DNA of 48,356 nt from a virus. Below are positions 1,225-41,458 of the stretch, piece after piece. Numbering within the stretch: position 1 is the stretch's first letter; every line of letters begins with the position of its first letter. Below the pieces are notes generated by a model, which did no database searches, was not told the origin of the DNA, and worked only from the letters and a program-made list of their open reading frames with translations. The stretch lies in UHGV virus genome UHGV-1370646; one strand, 5' to 3'. The translations under genes were made by a program, and so were the position numbers.

Positions 1225-1436
1225 AAAACTTCTCCTTTATGTTCACCCGCGTTCGCGATGACAGGATCGCGCGGGGTTTTCAAATATGCAATACAAGCCG
1301 CCTCGGTCGTTCTGTACTTGTTGCCGACCTTGCGGCCGGCGAGCTCACCAGATTCAATGAGACGATAGATCACCCGCGCCGACACGATGAGCAAATCGGC
1401 GGCCTGCTGTGCTGTTATCGGTTTGTCAGACGCCAT
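1101..1436 (-). CDS. xis: Excisionase / AlpA-like HTH DNA-binding protein
   Basis: Small protein just upstream of int in the same orientation, with an HTH-like stretch ([18 protein letters not shown]). Overlaps the int start as lambda xis does. The 3' extent is uncertain. Confidence 0.55.
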
Positions 1437-1448
1437 ATTTCCTCCCGG

Positions 1449-1691
1449 TTACGCCGCCTGCTGGGCGCGCAGTTTCTTAATGTGTTCGCTCTGCTCCAGC
1501 TCTGCCTTTATCTGCTGGGACTCTTCGTGAGAGAGCGGCTCGAAGTCATTGTTAAAGCGGTCTATGCTTGCGGTGTTGATCCGCCCCTGGCGCCAGTAGC
1601 GAACCGTCTTTTCGTCGCTGCTGGCGATAATTACCGGCCATCCGTGGCAATCGGCAAAGAGCTGACCTCTCTGAATTAGTTTGAACATCAC
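1449..1691 (-). CDS. Hypothetical early protein
   Basis: 80-aa ORF in the leftward operon, tightly packed against its neighbours. Confidence 0.4.
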   Translation of the reverse strand: MMFKLIQRGQLFADCHGWPVIIASSDEKTVRYWRQGRINTASIDRFNNDFEPLSHEESQQIKAELEQSEHIKKLRAQQAA

Positions 1692-1909
1692 GGCCTCCGG
1701 TGTTTACCGCGTAATTCCTCATCTTCCTGACAGTCAGCGCAGCGCTGACAGCCCGCCACAGCTTCCCAGCGCGGTTCTGGTATCTCTTCCCCGCAGTCGC
1801 GGCAGTGAGTAGCCGATACCGCCGCATGGTTGATGCGCATGTTCTGGATGGTCATTTCCAGCCGGCGCTCTGCCAGCTCGTTGGCCTGATCGATGAGTTC
1901 TGCGCTCAT
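1688..1909 (-). CDS. TraR/DksA-family C4 zinc-finger protein
   Basis: 73 aa with CRDCGEEIPEPR...CQRCADCQ (CxxC-N17-CxxC). This is the typical phage TraR-like arrangement. Confidence 0.7.
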   Translation of the reverse strand: MSAELIDQANELAERRLEMTIQNMRINHAAVSATHCRDCGEEIPEPRWEAVAGCQRCADCQEDEELRGKHRRP

Positions 1910-2610
1910 GCTTCGACTCCTTTCACGGCCAGAAACGTAGCCATCGCTTTATCAACAATCTTCGCATTGTGGTATTTGCTGATTGCCCAGGTGATAGCGA
2001 ATAAAATCCACCGGAAATGGCTGGTATACGTCTTAAAGGTCAGCCCGTCGCAGATATCCCAGGCGCTAAACCTTTCGGGCCAGTCGGCATCATAAACAGC
2101 GTTATAGGCTTCAAAATCGTTGTTAAACTCAGCCAGACACAACTCACGGACGATTTCGCGCACCTTAGCCTTTTCGCTATCCGGAGTTTCGTCATCGTCG
2201 TCCCAGTCGTCATCTTCTTCTGGCTCCTCGCTTTCGTCGTCCTCCAGGTAATCACTCATAGACTCTTTCAGGCTTTTGCAGAACGCGTCGTGGTCATACT
2301 CTTTCGCCAGCATTTCGCGTGCCGAACATCCCGCGCCAGCCTCCAGTTTTTCAGCCCAGTAATGGGTATTGATTCCACCTTCCCAGGCGCCAAAAAAGTC
2401 GAACATGTCCGCGATGCGACTGAATGTCCACGTTCCCATGTCGCCGGTTACGGTTAAGTAACCAGGCCAGGTGATAACGTCGTAGTAGTAGCAGGATGTT
2501 CCAGGCTGCTGCATACGCAGGTGGCGATACAAGCCATCATCACGAATGATTTCCAGACGGTGAAATGCTGTATCGATCAAAAATCTGGAGTCGATTTCAA
2601 AGAAGTTCAT
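1906..2610 (-). CDS. Hypothetical protein with an acidic C-terminal tail
   Basis: 234-aa ORF. Stop/start overlaps with its neighbours. C-terminal DDESEEPEEDDDWDDDDE. Confidence 0.5.
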   Translation of the reverse strand: MNFFEIDSRFLIDTAFHRLEIIRDDGLYRHLRMQQPGTSCYYYDVITWPGYLTVTGDMGTWTFSRIADMFDFFGAWEGGINTHYWAEKLEAGAGCSAREMLAKEYDHDAFCKSLKESMSDYLEDDESEEPEEDDDWDDDDETPDSEKAKVREIVRELCLAEFNNDFEAYNAVYDADWPERFSAWDICDGLTFKTYTSHFRWILFAITWAISKYHNAKIVDKAMATFLAVKGVEA

Positions 2611-2798
2611 GCTGCACCGCCTTCGCTTTTTTCCGCTTCAACCGCCATCTGCTCAAGCTTTCGTGAAAGCTCGGCAGACAGTGCCTGGAACTCTTCCTCT
2701 GTCGCTACCGGGATCGGCACAAACCGGATGCCGATATGAGCAAGGCCATGTGCGGCCTCAAGGCATTTCCTTAAATCAACGGGAGAGGCTCTGTTCAT
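2607..2798 (-). CDS. Hypothetical small protein
   Basis: 63-aa ORF, start/stop coupled with its neighbours. Confidence 0.35.
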   Translation of the reverse strand: MNRASPVDLRKCLEAAHGLAHIGIRFVPIPVATEEEFQALSAELSRKLEQMAVEAEKSEGGAA

Positions 2799-3538
2799 GC
2801 TGCACCGCCTTCAACGCGCTTGAACTCGATAACCCAAACCCAACCGTTGGCCTTCCAGCTTTCCTCGCCGTAGATGGAGTCCCACAGGCTTCTGAATGAG
2901 GACCGATATAGTTGATTCATTTCTACGTAGTGGGGCATGTCATCGGACCAAAACTGGAAAAACTCATCACTTGCCACGTAATTTCTTGCAACTACTGTCT
3001 GGTCCCAAACCTCGGTATGAACTCCCTCGCGTTGTGCGTCCTCTTCGCTGATAGCGTTCAACCGCTCAACGCGCACGTCGGTGATTTCCAGCAGAATGCG
3101 GCTGGCTGCTCTCGGCATATGAATGGAAGGCTTCCAGCACGAACGACCATCTTCATAACCATCGTCATCACCCCAGGTAAAATCACCATCAGCTGCATAA
3201 ATGGCGTGGCCAGAGTAATAGCCATTGCCAAACGGCATTTCGTTAATGGCTTTAGCCGGTCGGTCTGGCGTCCATGGTTGGATTCGACCATCCTCATCAA
3301 GTTCGTGGCTGACGACTCCCCACGTCTCGCGCACCCAGATGCGGTCGCCTGGCTTGCAAAATGCGCTGTTCAGATAGTTCCCTGCCGACAGCTCCCCGGC
3401 CAGTTCATTGCCAGCCAGCTCGCACCCAAGGTTTTTATCATACACAGGGAATTTCACTGGGCGCCGGGTCTGCGTCTTCCGGCCGTCAAGAATGGCTCGT
3501 ACCATTTCAGAGTTGAAAATCATTCCGCGCTCAGTCAT
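2795..3538 (-). CDS. Hypothetical early protein
   Basis: 247-aa ORF. N-terminus MIFNSEMVRAILDGRKTQTRR. No family recognised with confidence. Confidence 0.5.
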   Translation of the reverse strand: MTERGMIFNSEMVRAILDGRKTQTRRPVKFPVYDKNLGCELAGNELAGELSAGNYLNSAFCKPGDRIWVRETWGVVSHELDEDGRIQPWTPDRPAKAINEMPFGNGYYSGHAIYAADGDFTWGDDDGYEDGRSCWKPSIHMPRAASRILLEITDVRVERLNAISEEDAQREGVHTEVWDQTVVARNYVASDEFFQFWSDDMPHYVEMNQLYRSSFRSLWDSIYGEESWKANGWVWVIEFKRVEGGAA

Positions 3539-3875
3539 TCCAGGCCTCCATTTCGTTCTCGATCTCTTCGTCGATTTCGTCGTTGGTAGCTTCTTCGTCC
3601 AGGTAGTCGCGTGCTTCTTTCAGGTACTGCTCATGGCGCTCCCGATACCAGGCCGAAAATTCTGGCGTCCAGCCGTTCGGCTCACCGTCATAGTCAACCT
3701 TGGCGTTACGTTCAGCCATGCTTTCGACCATGCTGTAGGCGGTGGTAAGCGCCGCCTCGCGGATATATCCGCGTAAGTCACGCTTGCGCCAGTAGGGATT
3801 AACTTTTGAATCGCAGAAAGGTTTGAATTCCACTTCCCAGCGACGAATGCAACGCGCGTTTAATGACTTGCTCAT
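3531..3875 (-). CDS. Hypothetical protein (115 aa, acidic C-terminus)
   Basis: Start chosen at MSKSLNAR (ATG 3873-3875), which overlaps the upstream stop in ATGA fashion. The track's longer ORF (to 3998) runs into the neighbouring gene. Confidence 0.45.
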   Translation of the reverse strand: MSKSLNARCIRRWEVEFKPFCDSKVNPYWRKRDLRGYIREAALTTAYSMVESMAERNAKVDYDGEPNGWTPEFSAWYRERHEQYLKEARDYLDEEATNDEIDEEIENEMEAWND

Positions 3876-4093
3876 GATTCCACTCCATAGCGGCCGCTGA
3901 GCCGCCCAATAACACTGACAAATTTCACCAGGCTGACACCCATAGGCCGGACCTTCTCGTAGTGCTTGCGAAGGATGGGGGGGCATACAGCGTTCCACTT
4001 CGGTTTAGGCTTTACGCTCATCGCTTTGGTTAGCTCTTCTGCGCAGCGACGAGCCTGGGCGCGGAGAGCATTTTCTTTTTCTTCTGGCGTCAT
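3872..4093 (-). CDS. Hypothetical small protein
   Basis: 73-aa ORF. ATGA-type overlaps on both sides. Confidence 0.4.
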   Translation of the reverse strand: MTPEEKENALRAQARRCAEELTKAMSVKPKPKWNAVCPPILRKHYEKVRPMGVSLVKFVSVIGRLSGRYGVES

Positions 4094-4617
4094 GCTGCCT
4101 CCAGAGTGCCAATCCGCTTTAACTCAGCCAGCGATACGGATGTGATGATGTGTCGCGGACTGATGAACGGTCGCCAGATAAACAGCAGCGAGCCTTTTGG
4201 GTTACTCCGGCGCTTGCCTGTAACGGATGCCGGAACAAACTGGACGCGACCACCGGTTATCAGCCTCAGTTCATCAGCTGACTGCATAGCCGAGATAAAC
4301 CAGCCGGTAGAGATGTCAGCCGGCAACAGCATCACTACAGCCTGAGACTGCGCTCTGGATTGTTCGGCAGCCTTTTCCACCCACGGTCCGATATCGGAAT
4401 AGGGCGGGTTACACCAGATCGCGCCGTATGACGTCCAGTCGCTGTTCAGCGAGTTATCCAGCTCAGTGAGGTAATGAGCGCAAAGCGCATTACTCTCAGA
4501 GGCTGCAGCGTCCAGCCAGAAGCCAAATTCGCGATCGAGCGCATTGAAAATTTCAATCGGCGTTTGCCAGTAGTCGCGTTCATTTTTTGGTGTTTTCGAT
4601 CCTCCGAAATCAGTCAT
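4090..4617 (-). CDS. Phage DNA N6-adenine methyltransferase (Dam-like)
   Basis: 175 aa. N-terminal WQTP motif and catalytic NPPY (CNPPYS), typical of the phage Dam MTase family. Confidence 0.8.
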   Translation of the reverse strand: MTDFGGSKTPKNERDYWQTPIEIFNALDREFGFWLDAAASESNALCAHYLTELDNSLNSDWTSYGAIWCNPPYSDIGPWVEKAAEQSRAQSQAVVMLLPADISTGWFISAMQSADELRLITGGRVQFVPASVTGKRRSNPKGSLLFIWRPFISPRHIITSVSLAELKRIGTLEAA

Positions 4618-4919
4618 TGCGCACCTCTTTTCGCGTCTGCCTTTCTCATGCGGCTTAAAGTCCTGGATACCGACGCAACGCTGCGGCCCATCTTCATGGC
4701 GATGCTTTTATGCGACTCGCCGGCAGCGCGCAGTTCAGCTGCTACCTGCTTCTCTTCTGGCTTCCATGGCTTGTAGACAAACGCTGTGCTGATGGAATAG
4801 CTCTGTGCCAGGCGGTAGAAGTTTGCCTGGCTAATCCCCAGCGCATCCGCTGCGCGACAGGCAGGCATGGTTCCGGCGACGGCGCGGAATTGCTCTGGTG
4901 TGATGCTCTGCTTATTCAT
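4614..4919 (-). CDS. HTH DNA-binding protein
   Basis: 101 aa. HTH-like ADALGISQANFYRLAQ. Confidence 0.5.
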   Translation of the reverse strand: MNKQSITPEQFRAVAGTMPACRAADALGISQANFYRLAQSYSISTAFVYKPWKPEEKQVAAELRAAGESHKSIAMKMGRSVASVSRTLSRMRKADAKRGAQ

Positions 4920-5218
4920 TGTGCCTCCCGTGGTAACCGGTATATTTCTCCGCCAAGCGTCCCGTTTCCCCAGCGCTCGACGGTCAGAAATGGCTTAACC
5001 ATTTCCAGTTCCGGCGCCGAGATGAACACTTCTTTCATCTCAAGTGCTGGCGCCCACCCGGCGTAATAAGGTTCATGAAAATTCAGGGTTATCCCTGCGT
5101 TGTGCCCGAGGGCACCTGCTGCGGTCTGCCAGCGATGAAATACCGTAATGTTGTTCCGCGCGTCCTTGCGCAGGATGGACAGGATTGACTCAGCTGTTAC
5201 TTTCATGGCTGCCACCAC
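4916..5218 (-). CDS. Hypothetical protein
   Basis: 100-aa ORF in operon register. Confidence 0.4.
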   Translation of the reverse strand: MVAAMKVTAESILSILRKDARNNITVFHRWQTAAGALGHNAGITLNFHEPYYAGWAPALEMKEVFISAPELEMVKPFLTVERWGNGTLGGEIYRLPREAQ

Positions 5219-5843
5219 TTGCGGCTTGTTTCAGCTCTCTCAGGCGGATGCCGGTAACGACCCTGCACTTCGCCTGATGCCCAGGGAAGCCATGAAGGCT
5301 GTTCCATGCTTTTCCGTAGTTATCCTGGAGGGCCTTCGGATCGTTCTCTGAGCCTGCGTAAGCAGTGAAATCAGCGAGAATCTGATCTGCGTCTGCTGGC
5401 CTTACCTGGTGAGCCTCATAGTCAGGGTCCACAGCCGTCTCTTCTGTAGGGATGCAGAACGCCTGAAAGGCTGCATATTTGTACGCAATCGACATGGCCT
5501 TGTTCGTTGCTTTATCGCCGCTATCCATCGCCTCGCCGTAGGTGACGACGGTATGAATGCTGCCGTCCTCCGTGCTGACAAAATCGAACTCAGCCCGGAC
5601 GGTTACATAAAACAACGCGCCACCATTTTTGCTGGTTCGTTCACAGCATGACCGCTCAGTACACCGCGGGAGGATCAGTAACTTGTGCTTCACCAGGGCA
5701 GGGGCCAGAGCGTTGTAAACGTCATCGATCCCACGGAATGCGTAGTTGACCTGGCTGCCCTGTTTTCTGGCCTTGCTGATGCCTTTCTCTGCCAGCTCTC
5801 CGGCCACAGCGCTGATAGCGGCGTATACTTTTTTATCCGTCAT
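5190..5843 (-). CDS. erf: Single-strand annealing protein, Erf family (putative)
   Basis: 217 aa. The central region KATNKAMSIAYKYAAFQAF resembles the ERF-family core. It sits where lambdoid phages carry their recombination gene. Confidence 0.55.
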   Translation of the reverse strand: MTDKKVYAAISAVAGELAEKGISKARKQGSQVNYAFRGIDDVYNALAPALVKHKLLILPRCTERSCCERTSKNGGALFYVTVRAEFDFVSTEDGSIHTVVTYGEAMDSGDKATNKAMSIAYKYAAFQAFCIPTEETAVDPDYEAHQVRPADADQILADFTAYAGSENDPKALQDNYGKAWNSLHGFPGHQAKCRVVTGIRLRELKQAASGGSHESNS

Positions 5844-18642: not shown

Positions 18643-18720
18643 GTTCGCATAGCTTAACAAGGTTAAAGCACCCGACTCATAATCGGATGATTTCAGGTTC
18701 GAACCCTGATGCGAGCACCA
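18643..18720 (+). tRNA. Phage tRNA with anticodon CAT (ileZ-like Ile2/lysidine type, or Met)
   Basis: Cloverleaf traced by hand. Acceptor GTTCGCA/TGCGAGC, anticodon loop CTCATAA, T-loop GGTTCGAACCC, discriminator A plus CCA. Confidence 0.8.
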
Positions 18721-18725
18721 ATTCA

Positions 18726-18802
18726 GCGCCATTAGCTCAACCGGAGAGAGCAATAGCCTTCTAAGCTATCGGTTTCAGGTTCGAGTCCTGAATGGTGCAC
18801 CA
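18726..18802 (+). tRNA. Phage tRNA-Arg (anticodon TCT, argO-like)
   Basis: Acceptor GCGCCAT/ATGGTGC, anticodon stem ATAGC/GCTAT with loop CTTCTAA, T-loop GGTTCGAGTCC, CCA end. Same isoacceptor as the host att tRNA. Confidence 0.85.
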
Positions 18803-22140: not shown

Positions 22141-23817
22141 ATGAGCGGAATTATCGAATGGGATGACCTGTCATTCCCGGAGCGCGTGATCATCCGTTCA
22201 AAGTCTACGAAGTCATTCCTGAACTTCACCCGGATATGGTTCGAGCTGATTCAGGGTGATCGGCTGCTGGTTAACTGGCATCACCGCCTGATGGCTTCGA
22301 AAATTGATGATCTGCTTGCCGGGCGCCTTGTCCCGCGAAACCTGATTATCAACATCCCGCCAGGCGGTACGAAAACTGAGTTCTTCTCCATCCACTTCCC
22401 GGCGTATGTCAACGCCCTGGTGCAGGAGAAGCGGCTTAAACGCTTTCGCAACCTGAATATCTCTTTTGCTGACACGCTGGTAAAGCGTAACAGCCGGCGC
22501 ACCCGCGACATTATCGCCAGCCGTGAGTATCAGGAGTTCTGGCCCTGCTCGTTTGGTGTCAACCAGGCAGAAGAGTGGGAGATAAAGGACGAGCGAGGGC
22601 GCTCTATAGGCCAGACAGTATCGCGCTCAAGCAACGGGCAGATCACCGGGGGTCGTGGTGGCTACTACGGACCAGAGTTCTCCGGCATGGTGATGCTGGA
22701 CGACTACAACAAGCCGGTGGACATGCTCAGCGAGTCCCGACGCAAAAGCGCGAATACGCTGCTGGTAAACACCATTCGATCACGCCGCGGCGATAAGTCG
22801 AAAGAGCACCCGACTCCGTTTGTGAGCATTCAGCAGCGCCTGCACACCGACGATGCAACGGGATTCATGCTTGCCGGCGGAATGGGGGTGCCGTTTCACC
22901 ATGTCGCCATACCGGCCATGATCGACGAGAAGTACATCCAGTCGCTCGATGAGCCATGGCGTTCGCTTTGCTGGGAAACGGTCAAAGATACCGATTCTGT
23001 GGTCGTTGGTGGTGTTCGCTACTGGTCCTACTGGCCGCAGATGGAAGACGTTAACGACCTCCTGCAACTGTGGGAAAAGGATCGCTATACCTTCCTGTCG
23101 CAATACCAGCAAAACCCGATGGCGCTGACTGGCGGGATTATCGACACCAGCTGGTTCAGAACGTACACCACGCTGCCGAAGCTTACGCACCGCGCCGTGT
23201 ACGTCGATACGAACAGCGGGAAGGTAGAGGACTGGCTGGATTACACCGTGTTTACGCTGGCTGGCATGGGCGTGGACGGGAACCTGTACATCATCGACGT
23301 CGTTCGCGGACGGTGGGACCCGGAAGACCTCCTGAAGAAAGCGGAAGAGGTTTGGGAAAAATGGCGCCTGTCTGGCTCCATGCGGGTTATGCCGCTCCGC
23401 CATATGGCCATTGAAGAGAAGCAAGCCGGACAGGGCCTCATCACCACGCTGAAAAAACGTAGCCAGACGCCCGGGCAACTCGCCATCCCGGTGAGGGAAA
23501 TCCCGCGCGGCACCGGGCAGAACAAGCTCGTTCGCTGCCTTAACGTCATCCCTCAAATCAAAACCGGGAAAGTGTTTGTCCCCGCGACGCACACCGACGA
23601 CGGACAGAAGCTTTCCAGAATCTTCTACGAGGACGGCACGATCGCAGGCTCAACGGAGTGGGTGCTGACGGCGATGACGGAATGCGCTGCTTTCTCCGCT
23701 GATGACAGTCACGACAACGACGACATCCTTGATACCTGGATGGACGCAATCGACGACAACCTGATTTCCGGCCCGCAGCCGATGGTTATCGACCCGAATC
23801 AACTCAGGAGAATTTAA
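22141..23817 (+). CDS. Terminase large subunit
   Basis: 558 aa. N-terminal ATPase region (IPPGGTKTEF) and a C-terminal nuclease-like region. Followed by portal. Confidence 0.85.
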   Translation: MSGIIEWDDLSFPERVIIRSKSTKSFLNFTRIWFELIQGDRLLVNWHHRLMASKIDDLLAGRLVPRNLIINIPPGGTKTEFFSIHFPAYVNALVQEKRLKRFRNLNISFADTLVKRNSRRTRDIIASREYQEFWPCSFGVNQAEEWEIKDERGRSIGQTVSRSSNGQITGGRGGYYGPEFSGMVMLDDYNKPVDMLSESRRKSANTLLVNTIRSRRGDKSKEHPTPFVSIQQRLHTDDATGFMLAGGMGVPFHHVAIPAMIDEKYIQSLDEPWRSLCWETVKDTDSVVVGGVRYWSYWPQMEDVNDLLQLWEKDRYTFLSQYQQNPMALTGGIIDTSWFRTYTTLPKLTHRAVYVDTNSGKVEDWLDYTVFTLAGMGVDGNLYIIDVVRGRWDPEDLLKKAEEVWEKWRLSGSMRVMPLRHMAIEEKQAGQGLITTLKKRSQTPGQLAIPVREIPRGTGQNKLVRCLNVIPQIKTGKVFVPATHTDDGQKLSRIFYEDGTIAGSTEWVLTAMTECAAFSADDSHDNDDILDTWMDAIDDNLISGPQPMVIDPNQLRRI

Positions 23818-31021: not shown

Positions 31022-32503
31022 ATGGCAATTTCGCTATCAAAAATCGCCCAGATGCTTCCCGGCGTACTGAAGGCGACAGGGACGGCTATTGATCTCAATG
31101 GCCTGTTCCTGACCGACAGCGCATACGCGCCGGTTGGTGCAGTACCCTCATTTGCCAGTGCGGATGAGGTAAAGGCGTACTTCGGCAGCGCGTCGATTGA
31201 GTACACCGCCGCGGTGCTGTATTTCGCTGCTTTCAACGGCAAAACGCAGATGCCCGGCAAGCTGTATTTTAGCCGATTCAATACTGCGGCAGTGGCTGCA
31301 TTCCTTCGTTCCGGATCGCACGCCGCGACCACTCTGGCACAGCTCAAGTTACTGAGCGGCACGCTGACTCTGACCGTCGACGGTACGGAGGAGACTTCAG
31401 CGGCTATTAACCTCAGCGGCGCGACCAGTTTTGATAACGCGGCAGAGCTGATTGAAACCGGGATTGGCTCCTCGGTTGTGGTGACCTGGGATAGCGTGCT
31501 GAAGAAATTCATCATCACCTCTGCCACCACCGGCTCAGAGAGTTCGATCACCTTCGCCGATGACGGTACGCTGGCCGCTGGCCTCAAGCTGACCGAGGCG
31601 ACTGGCGCGGTAATTTCCCAGGGCGCTGCGCCGGCAGTGGTTGACGATATTTTTACTGCCATTCTTGCCAAAGAGCAGGACTGGGTAACATTCTCCACGA
31701 CGTTCGCTGTAACCAAAGAACAGGCCAATGCGTTTGCGCTCTGGGTAAACAGCAAGAACCACCGCTTTGCCTATGTCCCCTGGGACGCATCAGGAGCGGC
31801 GATCGTGGCGGGCAGCTCGAACGCACTGGTGTATGACATCATCAACACCTACGCCTACAACGATACCTGCCCCGTGTATGGTTACCCGAACCACGCAGCA
31901 AACGCGATGGGTTTTGTGGCCGCGCTGAACTTCACTCAAGCCAATGGGCGCTGCTCGCTGAATGGCCGTCAGGTGTCCGGCCTGTTGCCGATGATCAGTA
32001 ACGATACTGATTACGAGGCTGCCAAGGCCAACGGCTATAACTTCTATGGCAACTATGCCTCGAATGCCGTCGAAACCAATCAGTGGGCGCCCGGCTCTAT
32101 TACCGGTGATTACGCATGGCTTGACGCCTGGGCGGGTCAGGTATGGGTAAATGCTCAGCTTCAGGCAGCTCTCGTTGCGCTGTTCCAGCAGGCGAGCAAT
32201 CTGCCCTATGCTGCAGCCGGGAAGGCTCGCATTGAGTCGTGCATGAAGCCGACCATTGAGCAATTCAGGGCGTGGGGCGGTATGACGGCGGGCACTGACC
32301 TTGACCAGTCGCAGATCGACCAGATTAACGCCATCACTGGCGTCGACGTTACGGATTCTCTTCTGGCTGAAGGGTATTACATCTACATCGGCCCGTTCAC
32401 CCCGGCAATGCGCGCCTCGCGTACCAAGCCAACGGTTTACTTCTGGTACACCGACGGCGGGATCATCCAGGGTATTACCGTTAATAGCACGGAGGTGCAG
32501 TAA
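31022..32503 (+). CDS. Tail sheath protein (DUF3383-like)
   Basis: 493 aa. Followed by a small tube gene, a chaperone and a tape measure. The size and context are typical for a sheath. Confidence 0.7.
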   Translation: MAISLSKIAQMLPGVLKATGTAIDLNGLFLTDSAYAPVGAVPSFASADEVKAYFGSASIEYTAAVLYFAAFNGKTQMPGKLYFSRFNTAAVAAFLRSGSHAATTLAQLKLLSGTLTLTVDGTEETSAAINLSGATSFDNAAELIETGIGSSVVVTWDSVLKKFIITSATTGSESSITFADDGTLAAGLKLTEATGAVISQGAAPAVVDDIFTAILAKEQDWVTFSTTFAVTKEQANAFALWVNSKNHRFAYVPWDASGAAIVAGSSNALVYDIINTYAYNDTCPVYGYPNHAANAMGFVAALNFTQANGRCSLNGRQVSGLLPMISNDTDYEAAKANGYNFYGNYASNAVETNQWAPGSITGDYAWLDAWAGQVWVNAQLQAALVALFQQASNLPYAAAGKARIESCMKPTIEQFRAWGGMTAGTDLDQSQIDQINAITGVDVTDSLLAEGYYIYIGPFTPAMRASRTKPTVYFWYTDGGIIQGITVNSTEVQ

Positions 32504-33484: not shown

Positions 33485-33708
33485 AAATCCCCTTATCCGT
33501 CCCGGAAGACTCAGATCGTGGCTTCATTCAGTACGAGAACGTGCCGCGCAGTATCGCCGCGGTGATCTCCGGGAAAATGGCGACACTCCACGAACTGGAC
33601 ACGGTATACAGCGTCCAGGATATGTGGTGGCTGATTGAAATAATGACCGTGGATAACACCAACAGAGCCATAGCGGCGGAGAGTGATCATGGCAGCAACG
33701 GTAATTGA
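33391..33708 (+). other. Open -1 frame overlapping the chaperone 3' end and running into the tape-measure start: candidate programmed-frameshift extension (G-T or E-E' type)
   Basis: The -1 frame is open from 33391 to about 33708 and encodes protein-like sequence (...PEDSDRGFIQYENVPRSIAAVISGKMATLHELDTVYSVQDMWWLIEIM...). A T-run C-TTT-TGT at 33459-33465 could allow P-site slippage. Alternative: an independent 43-aa ORF from ATG 33579. Confidence 0.35.
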
Positions 33709-35605
33709 CGCCCTCCTGGTAACGCTGGGCCTTGATACTTCTCAGTTCCGCAAAGGCCAGCAGGAAGTCAGTGACGACCTGAAAAAGCAGCGCGAAGATG
33801 CCAAAAACACCGCCAAAGAAATGGCAGAGCAGGGCAAGAAAGCCGCTTCGTTCTTCAGCAGCATAAAGACGGAATTGCTGGCACTGACTGGCGTTACCGT
33901 CACTGCCGGCGGCCTGATGAGCCTTGTTAAAAATACCACGTCTAGCCTGATGGACCTTTCCATTCAGTCAAAGGCTCTTGGCATGACAGCCAGAGAACTT
34001 GATGGCTTCGGGAAGGCTGCAGAATCAGCCGGAAGCTCTTTTGAGAGGATTACGGCCGCCTTGCAGGGGTTCCAGGCTGCAAAGCAAGGTTCTCTATTTG
34101 GGGATACCAGCAGCCCGATCTTTAGCGGAATGCGAATGCTTACGGCGTTAACTGGTGATACTTTTGACGTCTATTCAAAGGATGCCAAGTCACTTGCAAG
34201 GTCTTATCTGGAGTCACTCAGGAAAGTTAAAGACCCAAACATTCGGCGCCAGATTGGTGCTATGGGTGGCTTCGATGATGCCACCATTCAGCGAAACCAG
34301 GAGGGTAGATTTCTTCCGGATGTTGACCGCTTAACAAAAAGCTCCGGCATTACAGACGCCTCAACCAAAGGCGCAAAGGAATTTACAGCCGCATGGGCGG
34401 AGCTGGGGCAAAATCTCGACACGGTAAAAAACCAAATTTATGAAGGTCTGATACCAACCATTCGAGACCTAAATGGCTTGCTAAAAGAATGGTCATCAGG
34501 GAATGTTAAATCCTCTTCATTCTTTAAAGAGCTGAAGCGGGACATTAACGATATCACAGGCATTGACCTTGGTGGCTGGACGCTATCAAGCGATCTGCGC
34601 AACCTCAAAGATAACTTTTCCATGCTCGGAAAAGTGCTCAACCATTTGGGTAACGCTTTAAACGAGCTCAACAACGGCAACTTCTCCAAGGCTGCCGATG
34701 AGTTTAAAAAGGCGTGGTACGGCACTGAAGACGGAAAGCCTACCGGTAATGATGCGCTGCCCGGGGTGACAAGTAACTCCCAAAGCATTTACGAAAACAG
34801 CACGTATAAAAAATATAATGACCTCCTGAACAAGTATCTACCCGAGTGGCTGGGGGGAACACCTTCGGACAGAAAGAAGGACCAAGATGAGAAGTCTTAC
34901 TGGGATACGACAAAGACTCTGCTTTCTAAAATAGCCGATGCCATTGTCACCCCTGCTGGCGCCTCCTCTTTAGAGCCAAGTATCGGGGGGTATCAGCCCA
35001 ACGTCCCGCTTAACGCTCAGGCCGCTCGTCTTGGCGCTAAAGGAAAGGCATTTCTTCAGGCAATGGCTGGGGAGTTCGGATCGCTGGAAGGTAAATATGG
35101 CCTTCCAGCCGGTCTGCTGTCTTCGGTAGCTGCTACTGAATCAGGTGGTGACCCGTTTGCGGAGTCGAAAGCTGGAGCCAAAGGCTTGTTCCAGTTCATG
35201 CCAGGCACCGCAAAGGATATGGGGCTGAAAGGTCGTGATGTTTTCGACCCCCACAAATCTGCAGATGCCGCTGGAAGATATCTGCGCTTTCTGCTGGATG
35301 CTACCGGCGGCGATCTTGAAAAAACTCTTGCCTCCTATAACTGGGGGCTCGGAAACGTCCAGAAGAAAGGCATGGATAACCTGCCGTCGGAAACTCGCAA
35401 TTACGTACCTAAAGTCATGGCCGGGATGCGTCCCGGCGCCGGTATGGCTGTAGACCGAGCGATGCCCGGGCAGGCTGGCGGTGTTTATAACTTTTATGGC
35501 ACCAAAATCACTACCCAGGCCCAGAACGTGCAACAGCTTACCAGCGACATCAAAAAGCACGGTGACAACCGCGTCATGCTAATGGCTGGCTACTCAGGAC
35601 AATAA
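33683..35605 (+). CDS. Tail tape-measure protein with a C-terminal lytic transglycosylase (SLT) domain
   Basis: 640 aa. Helical N-terminal two-thirds. SLT motifs ATESGGDPFAESKAGAKGLFQFMPGTA...YNWG. Confidence 0.8.
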   Translation: MIMAATVIDALLVTLGLDTSQFRKGQQEVSDDLKKQREDAKNTAKEMAEQGKKAASFFSSIKTELLALTGVTVTAGGLMSLVKNTTSSLMDLSIQSKALGMTARELDGFGKAAESAGSSFERITAALQGFQAAKQGSLFGDTSSPIFSGMRMLTALTGDTFDVYSKDAKSLARSYLESLRKVKDPNIRRQIGAMGGFDDATIQRNQEGRFLPDVDRLTKSSGITDASTKGAKEFTAAWAELGQNLDTVKNQIYEGLIPTIRDLNGLLKEWSSGNVKSSSFFKELKRDINDITGIDLGGWTLSSDLRNLKDNFSMLGKVLNHLGNALNELNNGNFSKAADEFKKAWYGTEDGKPTGNDALPGVTSNSQSIYENSTYKKYNDLLNKYLPEWLGGTPSDRKKDQDEKSYWDTTKTLLSKIADAIVTPAGASSLEPSIGGYQPNVPLNAQAARLGAKGKAFLQAMAGEFGSLEGKYGLPAGLLSSVAATESGGDPFAESKAGAKGLFQFMPGTAKDMGLKGRDVFDPHKSADAAGRYLRFLLDATGGDLEKTLASYNWGLGNVQKKGMDNLPSETRNYVPKVMAGMRPGAGMAVDRAMPGQAGGVYNFYGTKITTQAQNVQQLTSDIKKHGDNRVMLMAGYSGQ

Positions 35606-36758: not shown

Positions 36759-37609
36759 GTTACAAGGAAAGAGAGATAACGGTTGAGTTTACTCTGGCCA
36801 ATGGGACCTTTGACGGTAAAAAAGGTAACACGCTCATAGCCGAAGGGTTCAAGTGCGAGCTTTCTGTTTCGGCTTATGGGGGAGCTACCGGGACGATGAT
36901 GGAGCTTAGCCTGTGGGGCTTATCCCTTGATAACATGGCTAAATTGACCACCAACTCCGAAAAATTCTTCGGTGAGCAGCAAAACGCCATACGGGTTTTT
37001 ACTGGAGATGTTTGCGTGTTTATGGGCACGATAATATCTGCCAGGGTTAATCTGAATCAAATGCCTGATGCTCCGATTGAAATAACGGCCTCCGCTATTG
37101 GAAAGGAAAAGCTTGTCGTATGCGAGCCAACTTCAATTGAAGGTGAAGCGTCTGTCGCTGATATGATAAAAGCACTGGCCTCTAAGGTGGATTTGAAGTT
37201 CGTAAATGTTGATGTTAAATCGGTGCATAGCAACCCTTATTATGAGGGAAATGCTATTGAGCAAATTCAGAAAATTGCGGCCGATCACAATATTATTGCA
37301 GATATAGACTTTGGGACGGTTACAATCTACACGGGGGAAAGCCCTATTGATTCTGTGGTTCCATTTATATCTCCAGAACATGGACTAATTGGCTATCCTA
37401 TTTTTTATGATATTGGTATAAATTTTCGCTGCATTTATTCACCATCAATAAAGCTGGCTCGAAAAATAAAACTGGAAACCTCTCTCCCTCACGCAAGCGG
37501 GGATTGGATAGTCCAGTATGGAACCACTCATTACTTGTCATGCAGGGTCCCCGGTGGTCTATGGGAAACATTCGTTGTAGCTTATCCCGGATTTGTATTT
37601 GGAGTGTGA
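36755..37609 (+). CDS. Baseplate hub-like protein (hypothetical)
   Basis: 284-aa ORF preceding the spike gene. Confidence 0.5.
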   Translation: MSYKEREITVEFTLANGTFDGKKGNTLIAEGFKCELSVSAYGGATGTMMELSLWGLSLDNMAKLTTNSEKFFGEQQNAIRVFTGDVCVFMGTIISARVNLNQMPDAPIEITASAIGKEKLVVCEPTSIEGEASVADMIKALASKVDLKFVNVDVKSVHSNPYYEGNAIEQIQKIAADHNIIADIDFGTVTIYTGESPIDSVVPFISPEHGLIGYPIFYDIGINFRCIYSPSIKLARKIKLETSLPHASGDWIVQYGTTHYLSCRVPGGLWETFVVAYPGFVFGV

Positions 37610-37610
37610 G

Positions 37611-38201
37611 ATGCTTACCAAGCAAAAGCCTAGTGACATGTCGTGTCAGGGGAATGCTGTTCTTTCGCTTATAGCCGGAGCCATAAAGGGCTGCGTATTT
37701 GCCGATATCGTTTTAGTCAAAAAAGTGAATGGGAAGACCCTTACCGTTTTTCCTCTGGTTACTGGAACAAACGCTTCTGGCGGATCAATTGAAAACCAGG
37801 ATGTTTACAATGTTCCATTCATTCAGTACCAGGCTGGAAATAGTTCGGTAAAAATGACGCCCAGAGTAGGTGATATTGGCTTGGTGATTGCCTGTGATAA
37901 AGACATCACAAATGTGAAAAAAACTAAAGGCGGAGGCCCTCCACCAACTCAGCGGCGCCACTCATACTCAGATGCTGTTTACATCACGGCGATCGCTAGC
38001 CTGAATGATGAGCCGACGGAGCTTGCAGAGTTCACCGGTAGCGGCATAAACATCAAGAGCCCTGGCGTAGTTAACATCAACGGCATGAAAGTACACCCAG
38101 ACGGGAAACTTGAGCTTGTCGATGGCTCTATCGTTGATGGGCATACTCATGGTGGGGTAGTATCAGGAGGAAGCCGAACCGATCCTCTGGGGGCGGCATA
38201 G
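37611..38201 (+). CDS. Baseplate spike/assembly protein (gpV-like)
   Basis: Start MLTKQKPSDM. An OB-fold-like N-terminus, then a Gly-rich C-terminus (HTHGGVVSGGSRTD). Position is typical of gpV. Confidence 0.55.
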   Translation: MLTKQKPSDMSCQGNAVLSLIAGAIKGCVFADIVLVKKVNGKTLTVFPLVTGTNASGGSIENQDVYNVPFIQYQAGNSSVKMTPRVGDIGLVIACDKDITNVKKTKGGGPPPTQRRHSYSDAVYITAIASLNDEPTELAEFTGSGINIKSPGVVNINGMKVHPDGKLELVDGSIVDGHTHGGVVSGGSRTDPLGAA

Positions 38202-38212
38202 AGGGAATAAAA

Positions 38213-38593
38213 ATGTCGTTTTTAGTTATTGCAGCATTGTTGGGATTAATACCTGCGTTCATTGCGCAAAGTAAGGGGCGATCTTTCGGCGGTTGGTGGC
38301 TCTATGGATTCTTGCTTTTCATCGTTGCAATTATTCACGTTCTTTTCGTCCCCTCGCTTAATTCTTCTGGCGCTGCCGTAGCTGATTCTAAGGGCCCAAT
38401 GAGGGACTGCCCCTACTGTGCAGAGCCAGTGAAGTATCAGGCTACGAAGTGCAAGCATTGCGGGAGTGAGATTACCCCGATGGTATTACCAGAGCCAAAA
38501 TACAACGGCACTCAAATTGCTTGGGATCGGGTGCTGATTCTCATAGGAGGTATTGTGGCTGTTGCTTTGCTTTTCGGAGCTATGCACGATTGA
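38213..38593 (+). CDS. Membrane protein with a cytosolic C4 zinc-ribbon (accessory gene)
   Basis: 126 aa. Two N-terminal TM helices, CPYCAEPVKYQATKCKHCGS, and a C-terminal TM helix. AT-rich. It interrupts the baseplate gene series. Confidence 0.6.
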   Translation: MSFLVIAALLGLIPAFIAQSKGRSFGGWWLYGFLLFIVAIIHVLFVPSLNSSGAAVADSKGPMRDCPYCAEPVKYQATKCKHCGSEITPMVLPEPKYNGTQIAWDRVLILIGGIVAVALLFGAMHD

Positions 38594-38619
38594 TGATGCC
38601 CACGTGTGTGGGCACCTCC

Positions 38620-38826
38620 TCAGCCGAATCTGTCTTTAAAGCTGATGTCACTTTTTCTTTTTTTCATTTTGCTATTGCAGTTCGGGCAAAGGTGTTGCTT
38701 TTTGCCGTCGATCTTCCAGGTGTAGTAGTTACGTTTAAAACCTGTGCCGCATACATCGCAACGCCTTGGTTTGAAAAGGTTAACGAGAAACACTATTACG
38801 ATTACGCCAATAATCCATTCCATCAT
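38620..38826 (-). CDS. Small membrane protein with a C4 zinc-ribbon (accessory gene), convergent with the gene above
   Basis: 68 aa. N-terminal TM (WIIGVIVIVFLVNLF), CDVCGTGF...CPNCNS, and a basic tail. AT-rich. Confidence 0.5.
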   Translation of the reverse strand: MMEWIIGVIVIVFLVNLFKPRRCDVCGTGFKRNYYTWKIDGKKQHLCPNCNSKMKKRKSDISFKDRFG

Positions 38827-38843
38827 GTTCTCCAGAGGTTTTG

Positions 38844-39208
38844 CTATTTATCGTTGTCAAGATAACCCATGCGCTTCCCAAGGATTGCAGCAAGCCTTCT
38901 GTTATGTTCCTCTCCCTCACGAAGAATTGCAGCGGTAAAGGGGTCTCTTTTTTCAAGCTCAGCGAGAAACGCGGCTTTTTCCTCTGGCGTGGATTTTGAA
39001 TCCAAGGCCGCCTGAGTTGAATCAAAATCGACAATGTCGCTTTCAGCTATCAGCTTTTCTGTCTCCAGCGCATCTTGAAGGATCTGGACAATCTCAGAGT
39101 TCATAGACCTTCCGTTGCGCTTGGCCCGCGCAGCTATGGCGTCGCGCATACCATCAGGAAAGCGAAGGTTGAACTTGTCGTAGTCTTTTACTTGTTTTTC
39201 GGCCATTG
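38844..39208 (-). CDS. mnt: Mnt-like ribbon-helix-helix repressor (Arc/MetJ family)
   Basis: Start MAEKQVKDYDKFNLRFPDGMRDAIAARAKRNGRSMNSEIVQILQDAL, close to P22 Mnt (FNFRMPMEVREKLKFRAEANGRSMNSELLQIVQDAL). Divergent from an arc-ant pair. Confidence 0.75.
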
Positions 39209-39313
39209 CAAATCCCTCAAAAAAAATCATGGTGCCATATTGCCATACGATTTCAATGGTGGCACAGTGGCCTACATGGCGTCACTCTGGCACCAAATAA
39301 AGGAGATTAGATA
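39209..39313. promoter_or_regulatory. Divergent promoter/operator region between mnt and arc, with repeated GGTGCCA / TGCCATA motifs
   Basis: GGTGCCA (39231), TGCCATA x2 direct (39233, 39241), GGTGGCA (39259) and the inverted TGGCACC (39289). RBS AGGAG before arc. Confidence 0.45.
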
Positions 39314-39487
39314 ATGCAAGATACACTTTTCACTGAGCGCAAAAACATCAAAATCAACCTACGTCTTCCATCACGACTAAACGAGGAAGTTCGCCGCCTA
39401 GCTGAAATGGACTGTATTTCTCTTAATTCGGCGATTGTTCGTTTGCTGGCAAAAGGCGTGAGGGAAGAGGTGGCGAATGGTCGCTAA
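39314..39487 (+). CDS. arc: Arc-like ribbon-helix-helix repressor (57 aa)
   Basis: Not in the track. MQDTLFTERKNIKINLRLPSRLNEEVRRLAEMDCISLNSAIVRLLAKG. An RHH pattern like P22 Arc (FNLRWPREVLDLVRKVAEENGRSVNSEIYQRV). Confidence 0.6.
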   Translation: MQDTLFTERKNIKINLRLPSRLNEEVRRLAEMDCISLNSAIVRLLAKGVREEVANGR

Positions 39488-39560
39488 AAACAGCGAAGCC
39501 CGGAAGTGCGCTAACACTATCCGGGCCTCTATCGAAAATAACCGCGAAGGAAATATCGAC

Positions 39561-40196
39561 ATGAACATTGTAGCTAAATCAGATTTCAACTTCCATGGTG
39601 TAACGCTTAATCCGGTAGAAAATGTCACAGGTGTCTGGCTGACATCTGCAGATATTGCGAAGGCTCTCGGTTACAAAAGCACCAAGTCAATTTCTAACCT
39701 CTTCGCTCAGTACGAAGATGAGTTCTCTCAGGGTATGACAATGGTCATTGAATCAGTGACCAATGGAATAAATGGCTCTACCCGCAGGATGAAAGTTCGC
39801 GTCTTCTCTATGCGCGGTGCCCATCTTATCGCAATGTTTGCCCGCACTCCGGTAGCCAAAGAGTTTCGCCGCTGGGTTCTGGATATTCTGGATCGGGAAG
39901 TGGCGCATTCGCCGATTGCGAAGCAGTTCAGTGATGATGAGCTTTGCTCTTTGGCATGGTTATGGCGTGCCAGCGACATCATGCTCAAGGCCTGCGATAG
40001 CGTCACTCCGTTGTTGAAAGTGGCTGGGCATCGCCAAGCTGGGCATTTTCATTCAATCGGGCAGGAATTGCCACGATCGATTAACAAGGCAAGAGAAGTG
40101 ATTAAGCGCGAGACGGCGCATATCGAATTTCACCCATGGAAGGATGATAACTGGAGCAGGGTATTACCACACCTGCGTCAGGAGATGTTGCAGTGA
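39561..40196 (+). CDS. ant: Antirepressor (Bro-N / AntA-like N-terminal domain)
   Basis: Start MNIVAKSDFNFHGVTLNPVENVTGVWLTSADIAKALGYKSTKSISNL after RBS GAAGGA (the track's longer form starts at 39477). Directly downstream of arc, as in P22 immI. Confidence 0.75.
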   Translation: MNIVAKSDFNFHGVTLNPVENVTGVWLTSADIAKALGYKSTKSISNLFAQYEDEFSQGMTMVIESVTNGINGSTRRMKVRVFSMRGAHLIAMFARTPVAKEFRRWVLDILDREVAHSPIAKQFSDDELCSLAWLWRASDIMLKACDSVTPLLKVAGHRQAGHFHSIGQELPRSINKAREVIKRETAHIEFHPWKDDNWSRVLPHLRQEMLQ

Positions 40197-40265
40197 TGCA
40201 TAAATAGAAAAGCCGGTAGTTACGAGCTACCGGCCATCCATAAATCTGTCATAAGGGTCCAACCA

Positions 40266-41018
40266 ATGACTTCATTAAATTTAGCACCAAAAAGCAGTGT
40301 TGTCACCGATAAAACCATTGACAGCCAGTCTTTGCTGATGATGGTCAATCAGGCTCGCAAGCAGTGCGGGGAGCCAGAGGTACGCAACAATAAGTTCATT
40401 GAAAAAGTAGTCGACGAACTTGATGGGGAGTTTTACACAAAAAGTGTAAAACCCTCCGGCACTAATGGCGGCCGTCCTGTTGAGGTAATTGACATGACGA
40501 TCAAGCAGGCCCTTCGCGTGGCGGCCCGTGAGTCTAAAGCCGTTCGCCGCTCTTTGGTTGATAAGCTGGAAGACATGCAGGCTATCCAGGTGCCGACCAA
40601 AAGCACCTCAGGGCTTACTGAATATCGGCTTGCCAAAGCTGAACAACTCAAAGCTCAGGCGCTGGAGAAAAACATCGCATCGGCCCGCGAGCTGATGTCA
40701 ATGTTCCCTCGGCTTGGTGAATCGGCTAACCAGGTGATCGTCGCCACTCTCGTTAACCCACTTCTCGGTCATGAAGTTGTGCCACTGCCGGCGATTGAAG
40801 AGCATTACTATACGGCGGGTGAAGTGGCGGCGCAGCTCGGTTGCACTGCGAACAAGATCGGTCGTGTGGCTAATAAACACAATCTGAAAACAGAGCAGTA
40901 CGGCAAGTTCTTTCTGGATAAGTCGAGACACTCAGATAAGCAGGTTGAGGCGTTCCGCTACAATGCAGAAGGTGTAAAGGCATTGCGCCACCTGATCCAT
41001 GGCGCAGATGTAGCCTAA
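40266..41018 (+). CDS. Second antirepressor-like / phage regulatory protein
   Basis: 250 aa. A C-terminal HTH-like stretch (YTAGEVAAQLGCTANKIGRVANKHNL). Same operon as ant. Family uncertain. Confidence 0.45.
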   Translation: MTSLNLAPKSSVVTDKTIDSQSLLMMVNQARKQCGEPEVRNNKFIEKVVDELDGEFYTKSVKPSGTNGGRPVEVIDMTIKQALRVAARESKAVRRSLVDKLEDMQAIQVPTKSTSGLTEYRLAKAEQLKAQALEKNIASARELMSMFPRLGESANQVIVATLVNPLLGHEVVPLPAIEEHYYTAGEVAAQLGCTANKIGRVANKHNLKTEQYGKFFLDKSRHSDKQVEAFRYNAEGVKALRHLIHGADVA

Positions 41019-41062
41019 CTATCTGATAATAAATCTAAGCACTAATTAGTGCTTCGAAAACC

Positions 41063-41089
41063 AAACCTCGCTTCGGCGGGGTTTTTTTA
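41063..41089 (+). terminator. Rho-independent terminator closing the accessory cassette
   Basis: CCTCGC-TTCG-GCGGGG followed by TTTTTTTAT. Confidence 0.55.
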
Positions 41090-41101: not shown

Positions 41102-41458
41102 ATGAAAACAATCTCTCTCAAACTCGATCCCGAAACCTGGGACCTTGTCCTTGATGAGCTGGGTAATATCGCCACGGTAGAAAACCCCTACGCCTGCGCT
41201 CAGGACGTAGCGACGGCATGCCTGGCTATACGCGGTGAATGCATTTACGAAAAAGATACCGGCGTTAATTACAAAGAGCTGCTGAACGTTAAGGCCAGCA
41301 CTGGCGCCATGGCGGCCGCGCTTCAGGTTGAAGCGTTGCGGATGAGCTATATCGCACGCGCTGAGCCGACGCTGATTAACAACCGAGATACGCGCCGCAC
41401 TACCGGCGTTATTGCGATCGTGGATACCAACGGCCTGGATTCCAGCGTCACCCTGTGA
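41102..41458 (+). CDS. Baseplate protein (gpW/gp25-like position)
   Basis: 118 aa, directly upstream of the Baseplate-J-like gene. Confidence 0.5.
   Translation: MKTISLKLDPETWDLVLDELGNIATVENPYACAQDVATACLAIRGECIYEKDTGVNYKELLNVKASTGAMAAALQVEALRMSYIARAEPTLINNRDTRRTTGVIAIVDTNGLDSSVTL

Follow-up and report, generated by a model that had tools for sequence, protein, structure and literature searches.

Two independently distributed genes for small zinc-ribbon membrane proteins in the tail operon of a Klebsiella prophage

Three phage proteins, T4 Imm, HK97 gp15, and P22 SieA, have been reported to interfere with DNA entry by superinfecting phages (PMC11436027, PMC6832632, PMC3594210, PMC10883804). 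An exclusion phenotype has been demonstrated for HK97 gp15, which also has a chromosomal family, YebO, without phage phenotype (PMC3594210). SNIPE, for its part, is a membrane-bound nuclease acting on injected DNA (PMC13190303). Here, we analyse two small genes, named A and B, in the tail region of virus genome UHGV-1370646, the whole 48,356 nucleotides (nt) of which are referred to as the window. The window comprises the whole of a temperate Klebsiella myovirus prophage, and the region of interest is about 89% identical to Klebsiella phages KP12, KpnBHU6, and klb_E. Both genes are of a known kind, namely prophage morons (independently transcribed insertions in a phage operon, in the Juhala/Hendrix sense) encoding small inner-membrane proteins, of which their two zinc-ribbon families are uncharacterised variants. 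We find that A and B are inherited independently of each other. The reading we favour, on which we are evenly divided between belief and doubt, is that they are independent lysogen-expressed inner-membrane morons, most likely interfering with DNA entry by superinfecting phages.

Gene A (38213..38593, + strand) is an open reading frame (ORF) for a membrane protein of 126 amino acids (aa), which starts 11 nt past the stop codon of the gpV-like baseplate spike gene (37593..38201, +; Pfam N-terminal spike domain, E 8.6e-6, plus a GpV Apex motif) and has its own ribosome-binding site. Gene B (38620..38826, - strand) encodes 68 aa; public annotations start it at the second Met, giving 67 aa. The two genes are convergent, with stop codons 26 nt apart. 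Past the immunity genes described below, the tail operon resumes with a gpW-like baseplate wedge gene (41102..41458, +; PHROG 120, E 3e-29) and a gpJ-like gene starting at 41412. A preliminary description had proposed two facing small ORFs of 126 and 68 aa with characteristic transmembrane (TM) and cysteine layouts, placed between the gpV-like spike and the gpW/gpJ-like genes and next to an mnt gene, and our coordinates, helices, motifs, and Pfam/PHROG matches agree with it. Its statement that both genes are AT-rich among GC-rich tail genes fits gene B (40.6% GC, the 2nd percentile of the window) but not gene A, the GC content of which (48.0%) is the same as that of the adjacent spike gene (48.3%) and above that of the hub gene (43.6%).

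A first survey of IMG/VR, seeded with A and B, recovered loci with A but without B, with B but without A, and with both, all within this tail family. An unbiased census anchored on gpW comprises 78 loci with both spike and gpW. Gene A is found in 15 of them, gene B in 12, both in three, and neither in 54. Co-occurrence is at the level expected by chance (Fisher odds ratio 1.5, p=0.69), as only three of the 24 A- or B-bearing loci carry both genes, while 12 are A-only and nine B-only. Genes A and B are thus two independent accessory cassettes and not a two-part system: the preliminary description was right to regard them as accessory insertions, but not to treat them as a pair, nor as a sensor/effector module, given these counts, the separate terminators of single-gene relatives, and the occurrence of each gene alone in unrelated contexts. 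That either gene provides a structural part of these tails or serves their assembly was rejected, since 54 of the 78 loci carry neither gene. Homologs in phages lacking mnt, arc, and ant, which the preliminary description had thought might reveal such a role, do exist for gene A (11 census loci read spike, A, gpW without these immunity genes); as gene A is absent from most relatives, these loci show its independence from the immunity genes and not a structural function.

The spike-gpW gap is a recombination hotspot for accessory cargo. Its left edge is the stop codon of the spike gene, which is kept in the 78 related loci, and its right edge is an intrinsic terminator recognised from sequence (CCTCGC-TTCG-GCGGGG followed by T7; 41064..41089, +), 12 nt 5' of gpW, which is the same element in L022, L024, L028, and L030, including A-only relatives. 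Between these edges (38202-41063 in the window; related loci L098-L176), the slot ranges from 458 to 5292 base pairs (bp) and takes more than 20 configurations across the 78 loci. In the slots examined, cargo is mostly envelope-targeted: other genes on the late strand encode a 218-aa lipoprotein (LAGC lipobox) and secreted proteins of 263 and 116 aa (the latter being PHROG 13007), an exception being a 149-aa reverse-strand ORF without evident targeting signal. The terminator at 41064-41089 stands within the late tail operon and is kept across relatives with differing cargo. This implies that late transcription must pass it via antitermination and that it caps cargo transcripts.

Both genes behave as morons by their presence or absence among collinear relatives (15 of 78 loci for A, 12 of 78 for B). 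The gene A cassette consists of ribosome-binding site, ORF, and terminator, directly after the spike gene. In single-gene relatives, each gene also has a terminator of its own: A-only relatives show gene A followed by the intrinsic terminator AACCCACC-ATCA-GGTGGGTTTTTT, and B-only relatives show gene B followed by GCCCAC-ACAA-TGGTGGGCTTTC. A canonical stem with a T-run is found 3' of A in L021, L024, and L026, and 3' of B in L002, L007, L009, L011, and L015. In the window, there is instead a single GC-rich hairpin between the two stop codons (TGCCCAC-GTGT-GTGGGCA; 38597..38614), with no U-tract in either direction, a folding energy of -17 to -19 kcal/mol for the 50-nt region (RNAfold), and no call in our terminator scan. 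From the comparison of junctions, this hairpin appears to be a fusion of the A-type and B-type terminators in which the U-tract has been lost both ways. Since neither strand has a U-tract, convergent read-through is possible, in which case late transcripts would be antisense to B and mnt.

Protein A has predicted helices at residues 2-20, 25-45, and 104-125 and a CPYC...CKHC motif at 66-83; its AlphaFold2 model (predicted local distance difference test, pLDDT, 79.7) shows the same helices and a zinc ribbon at 63-85. Its architecture is a TM1-TM2 hairpin with the invariant motif IPAxIAxxKGRSF..WW.YG, a CP[YF]CAE...KCKHCGS zinc ribbon, and a C-terminal TM3. The conserved core of the family spans residues 1-87, where a nearly invariant TM1-loop-TM2 segment (AALLGLIPAFIAQSKGRSFGAWWLYGFLLFIVAIIH) precedes CP[FY]CAE.[IV]K..A.KCKHCGS, while the C-terminus varies among a third TM helix, a short soluble tail, and a soluble domain of about 90 aa. 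In comparisons without saturated synonymous substitution, the ratio of nonsynonymous to synonymous substitution rates (dN/dS) is 0.08-0.24 for gene A and 0.06-0.11 for gene B, indicating purifying selection on both, which are thus genuine genes, and all eight cysteines of the two proteins are invariant. Loop 1 of protein A counts 2.1 K+R and zero acidic residues, so that the positive-inside rule would place the zinc ribbon in the periplasm. Two Klebsiella proteins (P0047 and P0038) have a C-terminal half, comprising zinc ribbon and TM3, near-identical to that of protein A and a wholly different N-terminal membrane domain; these mixed halves point to domain shuffling within the family.

Gene A matches PHROG 8436 (E 9e-43), a family without assigned function, and reaches Pfam Zn_ribbon_3 just at threshold (27.1 bits for a 27-bit cut-off, E 2.7e-6). 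Its 477 relatives, almost all from Enterobacterales, are named 'zinc ribbon domain-containing protein'. A distant relative, gp065 of Pseudomonas phage YMC11/02/R656, matches PHROG 8436 (E 1.7e-18) and carries both PF14373 (Imm_superinfect, E 1.6e-18) and Zn_ribbon_3; its gene adjoins the tape-measure gene in the tail operon. The PF14373 plus PF13248 architecture is widespread. When the A family (113 sequences) and the PF14373+PF13248 family (104 sequences) were compared with hhalign, they aligned collinearly over 83 columns (Prob 99.7%, E 1.7e-25), a score dominated by the zinc ribbon, and the A family shares with the other one a collinear TM hairpin, linker, and C4 ribbon of CPYCAE...KC[KR]HCG type. 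On these alignments, gene A is related in architecture, and probably also by descent, to the Imm+ribbon proteins, without being a demonstrated Imm_superinfect member. A SPOR-like C-terminus in YMC11 gp065, which would fix the ribbon in the periplasm, was considered and dropped, as Pfam did not detect it. Structure-based searches added little: a search of BFVD returned only unnamed 'zinc-ribbon containing' phage proteins for gene A, and PDB sequence searches only ribosomal or eukaryotic zinc fingers (E>1e-3). NCBIfam gave only ribbon-level noise, for example TcaA and aMBF1. No solved structure or informative fold match was found for A or B.

Members of the A family recur next to tail-tip genes or repressors. 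In Salmonella phage FSL SP-016, the gene lies between the tail assembly chaperone and tape-measure genes, which is exactly the slot of HK97 gp15, and it has the same position in Pseudomonas phages D14Q and YMC11/02/R656 and Klebsiella phage ST11-VIM1phi8.2. An E. coli lambdoid prophage carries it after the tape-measure gene. Serratia prophages have it directly 3' of an S24 cI-type repressor gene, on the same strand. In ST11-VIM1phi8.2, we also observed two successive small 'zinc ribbon domain-containing' genes directly 5' of the tape-measure gene (L071 3366-3922), of which at least the first matches the ribbon region of gene A.

Protein B consists of a two-residue N-terminus, one TM helix, a KPRR motif, a CxxC...CPxC zinc ribbon (CDVC...CPNC), and a basic helix, with 15 K/R and 4 D/E residues after the TM helix (AlphaFold2 pLDDT 72). 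It is probably bitopic. Only 15 close clusters were found, but a profile search of 1.84 billion representatives retrieved 346 proteins at E<=1e-3, 105 of them at E<=1e-10, so that the family comprises at least 346 clusters at 50% identity. They share a TM helix followed by C.[IV]C...[IL][KR][KR]..Y.W.I.GK...CP.CN...E[RK][RK].S. Longer relatives add predicted periplasmic domains N-terminally and, occasionally, HIRAN or HNH domains C-terminally. Because of these periplasmic domains and of the basic charge after the helix, gene B is predicted to be N-out/C-in, with its zinc ribbon probably on the cytoplasmic face of the membrane. Among the longer relatives, P0343 and P0315 couple a B-like TM and zinc-ribbon module to a C-terminal HNH endonuclease in one and a HIRAN domain in the other; with one fusion of each type among 42 long relatives, these are sporadic and carry little weight.

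Searches of Pfam, PHROGs, NCBIfam, and PADLOC yielded no family for gene B, and Foldseek against the PDB gave only generic treble-clef or RING matches (E>=1). The JGI name 'ribosome-binding protein aMBF1' for this gene is an artefact of the zinc ribbon. The preliminary description could not name a family for either protein, which holds for gene B but not for gene A, given PHROG 8436 and Zn_ribbon_3. It had also called the supposed module undescribed; this stands insofar as no functional study of either family was found, and applies less well to A, some relatives of which are named 'superinfection immunity protein'.

Gene B adjoins a secondary immunity block of the immI type. It starts 17 nt past the stop codon of a gene for an Mnt-like ribbon-helix-helix repressor (38844..39206, -; Pfam Arc, E 1.7e-19; PHROG 1287/7906) and has a GGAG ribosome-binding site, from which we consider it the distal gene of the mnt operon. 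The mnt ORF is open to 39230, but KP12 is annotated with a start at the Met equivalent to position 39206. The same adjacency is seen in 12 of the 12 B-bearing loci of this tail family, and Edwardsiella phage Edno5 likewise has mnt followed by B, with divergent arc and ant (gap between mnt and B of 17-24 nt in Klebsiella phages and Edno5). The divergent mnt/arc control region (39207..39313) holds consensus matches to a candidate Pmnt (TTGAAA-19-CATGAT, 9 of 12) and to a candidate rightward promoter (CTGGCA-17-GATAAT); gene B is presumably driven by the former. As gene B would be co-transcribed with the repressor gene, it is expected to be made in the lysogen. The same region contains repeated motifs, TGGTGCCA, TGGTGGCAC, and CTGGCACC, which could be operators of Mnt and Arc.

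Outside this setting, B-family genes are found alone. In a Serratia prophage (L080), gene B stands by itself between spike and gpW. Phytobacter prophages carry it as a stand-alone gene, antisense to the tail genes and just 5' of the tape-measure gene, and another family member lies beside an integrase gene. Finally, there are B-like orphans in bacterial chromosomes, namely in Photorhabdus (L078, L092, and L094), Proteus (L082 and L095), and Enterobacter/Lelliottia (L062, L077, L084, L086, L090, L091, L093, and L096), at genus-conserved sites, namely beside an ABC transporter, in the interval from rbsD to dxs, and in the yicJ-SymE islet.

Under the reading we favour, gene A, sitting in the inner membrane, would block opening of the DNA channel by the tail tip or tape-measure complex of a superinfecting phage; the TM hairpin, hardly variable across the family, would form the core that engages the membrane or a partner, and specificity would be tuned by the variable C-terminus. 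Gene B would add another envelope function, expressed in the lysogen and independent of gene A, and most likely it too would interfere with the entry of phage DNA; its N-out/C-in topology would hold a very basic zinc ribbon at the cytoplasmic face of the membrane. The argument for exclusion is better grounded for gene A, owing to its Imm-type architecture and to the gp15-slot and cI-operon contexts. An exclusion role, as the preliminary description had supposed, is plausible and the best available guess from these comparisons.

Several observations weigh against this reading. Gene A has no PF14373 match even at E<=0.1 (the gathering score being 27.9 bits, and the positive control YMC11 gp065 scoring 66.8 bits), and it falls below the PHROG 1039 threshold. 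With the zinc ribbon removed, only TM1 and the loop align with the Imm family and TM2 is left unaligned (hhalign Prob 48.5% over 21 columns), although the Prob and the score of 22.8 exceed the maxima of 15.4% and 18.3 in 22 reversed or shuffled controls. Ribbons of the CPYCAE...KCKHCG type may be common beyond Imm fusions, and the predicted periplasmic position of the ribbon would be unusual for a 4-Cys ribbon. The best promoter candidate for gene A in a consensus scan reaches only 8 of 12 and lies inside the spike gene (promoter and terminator sites in such scans being no more numerous than in shuffled sequence), and without a detected promoter, the gene may in this phage be expressed only late, with the tail genes. 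PADLOC-DB v2 gave no defence match (for gene A only LmuB, E 0.093, on the ribbon alone; for gene B none), and literature searches returned no functional study of either family. For gene B, the orphan chromosomal genes, lying between housekeeping genes and syntenic within Photorhabdus, Proteus, and Enterobacter/Lelliottia, point to a function in host physiology and not to one dedicated to defence against phages.

This last point leads to the alternative that survives best, to which we give some, though limited, credence: one or both genes could be lysogenic-conversion or physiology morons altering the envelope (stress tolerance, transport modulation, or virulence, for example) for reasons unrelated to phage, and would then resemble the many small inner-membrane proteins of enterobacteria. 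The orphans, kept within genera, make it a serious rival for gene B, HK97 gp15 has a comparable chromosomal counterpart in YebO, which has no phage phenotype (PMC3594210), and the lipoproteins and secreted proteins among the slot cargo would fit either purpose. For gene A, however, it is countered by a family that is nearly always prophage-borne, beside tail-tip genes or a repressor, and the relatives of which include the Imm_superinfect domain.

It is unlikely that gene A instead serves the lytic cycle of its own phage, as a holin- or antiholin-like protein or as a tail-tip or genome-delivery helper, with expression from the late operon only. Its position 11 nt past the spike stop without detected promoter would suit this, as would its three TM helices, a number also found in class I holins, and T4 Imm has been likened to a holin (PMC6832632). 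But gene A is missing from 63 of the 78 phages with the same tail module, many members of its family have no TM3, and the gene is not adjacent to lysis genes. Moreover, Serratia prophages carry it in the repressor operon, and in relatives a terminator of its own comes after it, in moron fashion.

We are equally doubtful of a bolder version of the favoured reading, in which A and B would each found a separate class of zinc-ribbon exclusion factors in the inner membrane, the ribbon of B would bind or divert incoming DNA at the injection site, and the slot would be a natural library of exclusion genes. Gene B might then be seen as a nuclease-free or nuclease-recruiting counterpart of SNIPE, but the parallel is anecdotal.

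Very unlikely, in our view, is a role for gene B in regulating the immI circuit, for example as a membrane tether sequestering Ant or Mnt. Its constant place in the mnt operon, in the 12 B-bearing loci of the tail family and in Edno5, speaks for such a role, and its basic tail and zinc ribbon could serve to bind protein or nucleic acid. However, 11 of the 23 Mnt-bearing census loci have no gene B, while gene B occurs without any Mnt, Arc, or Ant in Serratia (L080), in Phytobacter, and in many chromosomes, and at its position P22 has the unrelated soluble orf59a. A defence module of two membrane components, with A and B as sensor and effector, is scarcely credible: the genes are adjacent and convergent, both encode membrane zinc-ribbon proteins, share one hairpin between their stops, and have the same arrangement in KP12 and three IMG/VR contigs, but they co-occur only at chance level, each also stands by itself in phages and chromosomes that are unrelated, their strands are opposite and their transcription units different, and no PADLOC model matches.

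Elsewhere, the prophage has an integrase gene (61-1224, -), the large terminase gene (22141-23817), the sheath gene (31022-32503), and a tape-measure/lytic tail protein gene (33683-35605), after which come the baseplate hub, spike, gpW-like, and gpJ-like genes. The protein at the tape-measure position has a lytic transglycosylase-type domain, belongs to PHROG 2013 ('lytic tail protein'), and shows endolysin/transglycosylase matches at residues 400-615. Two phage tRNA genes, tRNA-Met(CAT) and tRNA-Arg(TCT), are found at 18643-18802 with a spacing of 5 nt. In the immunity block, arc (39314-39487, +) is followed by ant (39477-40196, +; Bro-N plus P22_AR_C; PHROG 245) and by a second anti-repressor gene (40266-41018, +; PHROG 1726). 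Two different anti-repressor genes are thus in tandem after arc (39477-41018), and relatives carry one, both, or neither. Rfam had no match in the region.

Klebsiella prophages shape which therapeutic phages infect clinical strains, and small membrane exclusion proteins are poorly catalogued because finders of defence systems miss them, PADLOC for instance reporting nothing here. The present locus yields an Imm-related zinc-ribbon family that recurs beside tail-tip genes or a repressor, a broad family without Pfam model (a membrane anchor plus a basic zinc ribbon) in phages and enterobacterial chromosomes, and, in a common lineage of Klebsiella prophages, a hypervariable slot filled mostly with lipoproteins, secreted proteins, and membrane proteins. 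If A and B do block DNA entry, new exclusion genes could readily be drawn from this slot, and its content would predict host range in phage therapy; if they do not, they are two ordinary morons of unknown function.

Compared with described systems, the predicted topology of gene B resembles that of SNIPE, in that the N-terminus would lie in the periplasm, one TM helix would follow, and a basic domain, which may bind DNA, would face the cytoplasm, where phage DNA enters. Gene B differs from it in having no nuclease domain, no DUF4041, and no homology, which leaves SNIPE a conceptual analogue only. The Imm_superinfect+zinc-ribbon proteins, such as YMC11/02/R656 gp065, are like protein A in their hairpin with a basic loop, linker, and CPYCAE...KC[KR]HCG ribbon. 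Yet the second helix of A (WW.YG.LLFIVAIIH) does not carry the GWT..GW..AL.WA signature of the Imm_superinfect family, and protein A ends in an additional TM helix. T4 Imm itself, the product of an early gene in a lytic phage, lacks a zinc ribbon.

The immI region of P22 is similar in organisation to the window, as a Mnt/Arc/Ant block is inserted into a late operon beside injection or tail genes, with a small mnt-distal ORF and, to the same side, a gene for an exclusion protein of the inner membrane (PMC10883804); the analogy with the neighbourhood of sieA drawn in the preliminary description is thus apt in layout. The components nevertheless differ. P22 orf59a, at the mnt-distal position, encodes a hydrophilic, soluble protein unrelated to gene B (E 9.7), so that homology of the two, suggested by their common operon position, was rejected. 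SieA (162-164 aa, three TM helices, own promoter), which lies beyond orf59a, is unrelated to A or B, neither of which matches it in BLASTP. Homology with gp15 was rejected in the same way: in BLASTP, gene A gave no match to it and gene B only a 12-residue match in the TM region (E 0.026). Unlike protein A, gp15 spans the membrane only once and lacks a zinc ribbon, and exclusion, demonstrated for gp15, is for A and B what we infer from context. Gene B nonetheless resembles gp15 and YebO in having chromosomal orphan relatives, while gene A, like gp15, encodes a small inner-membrane protein from a moron inside a tail operon, and in the HK97-like Salmonella phage FSL SP-016 it is an A-family member that occupies the gp15 slot.

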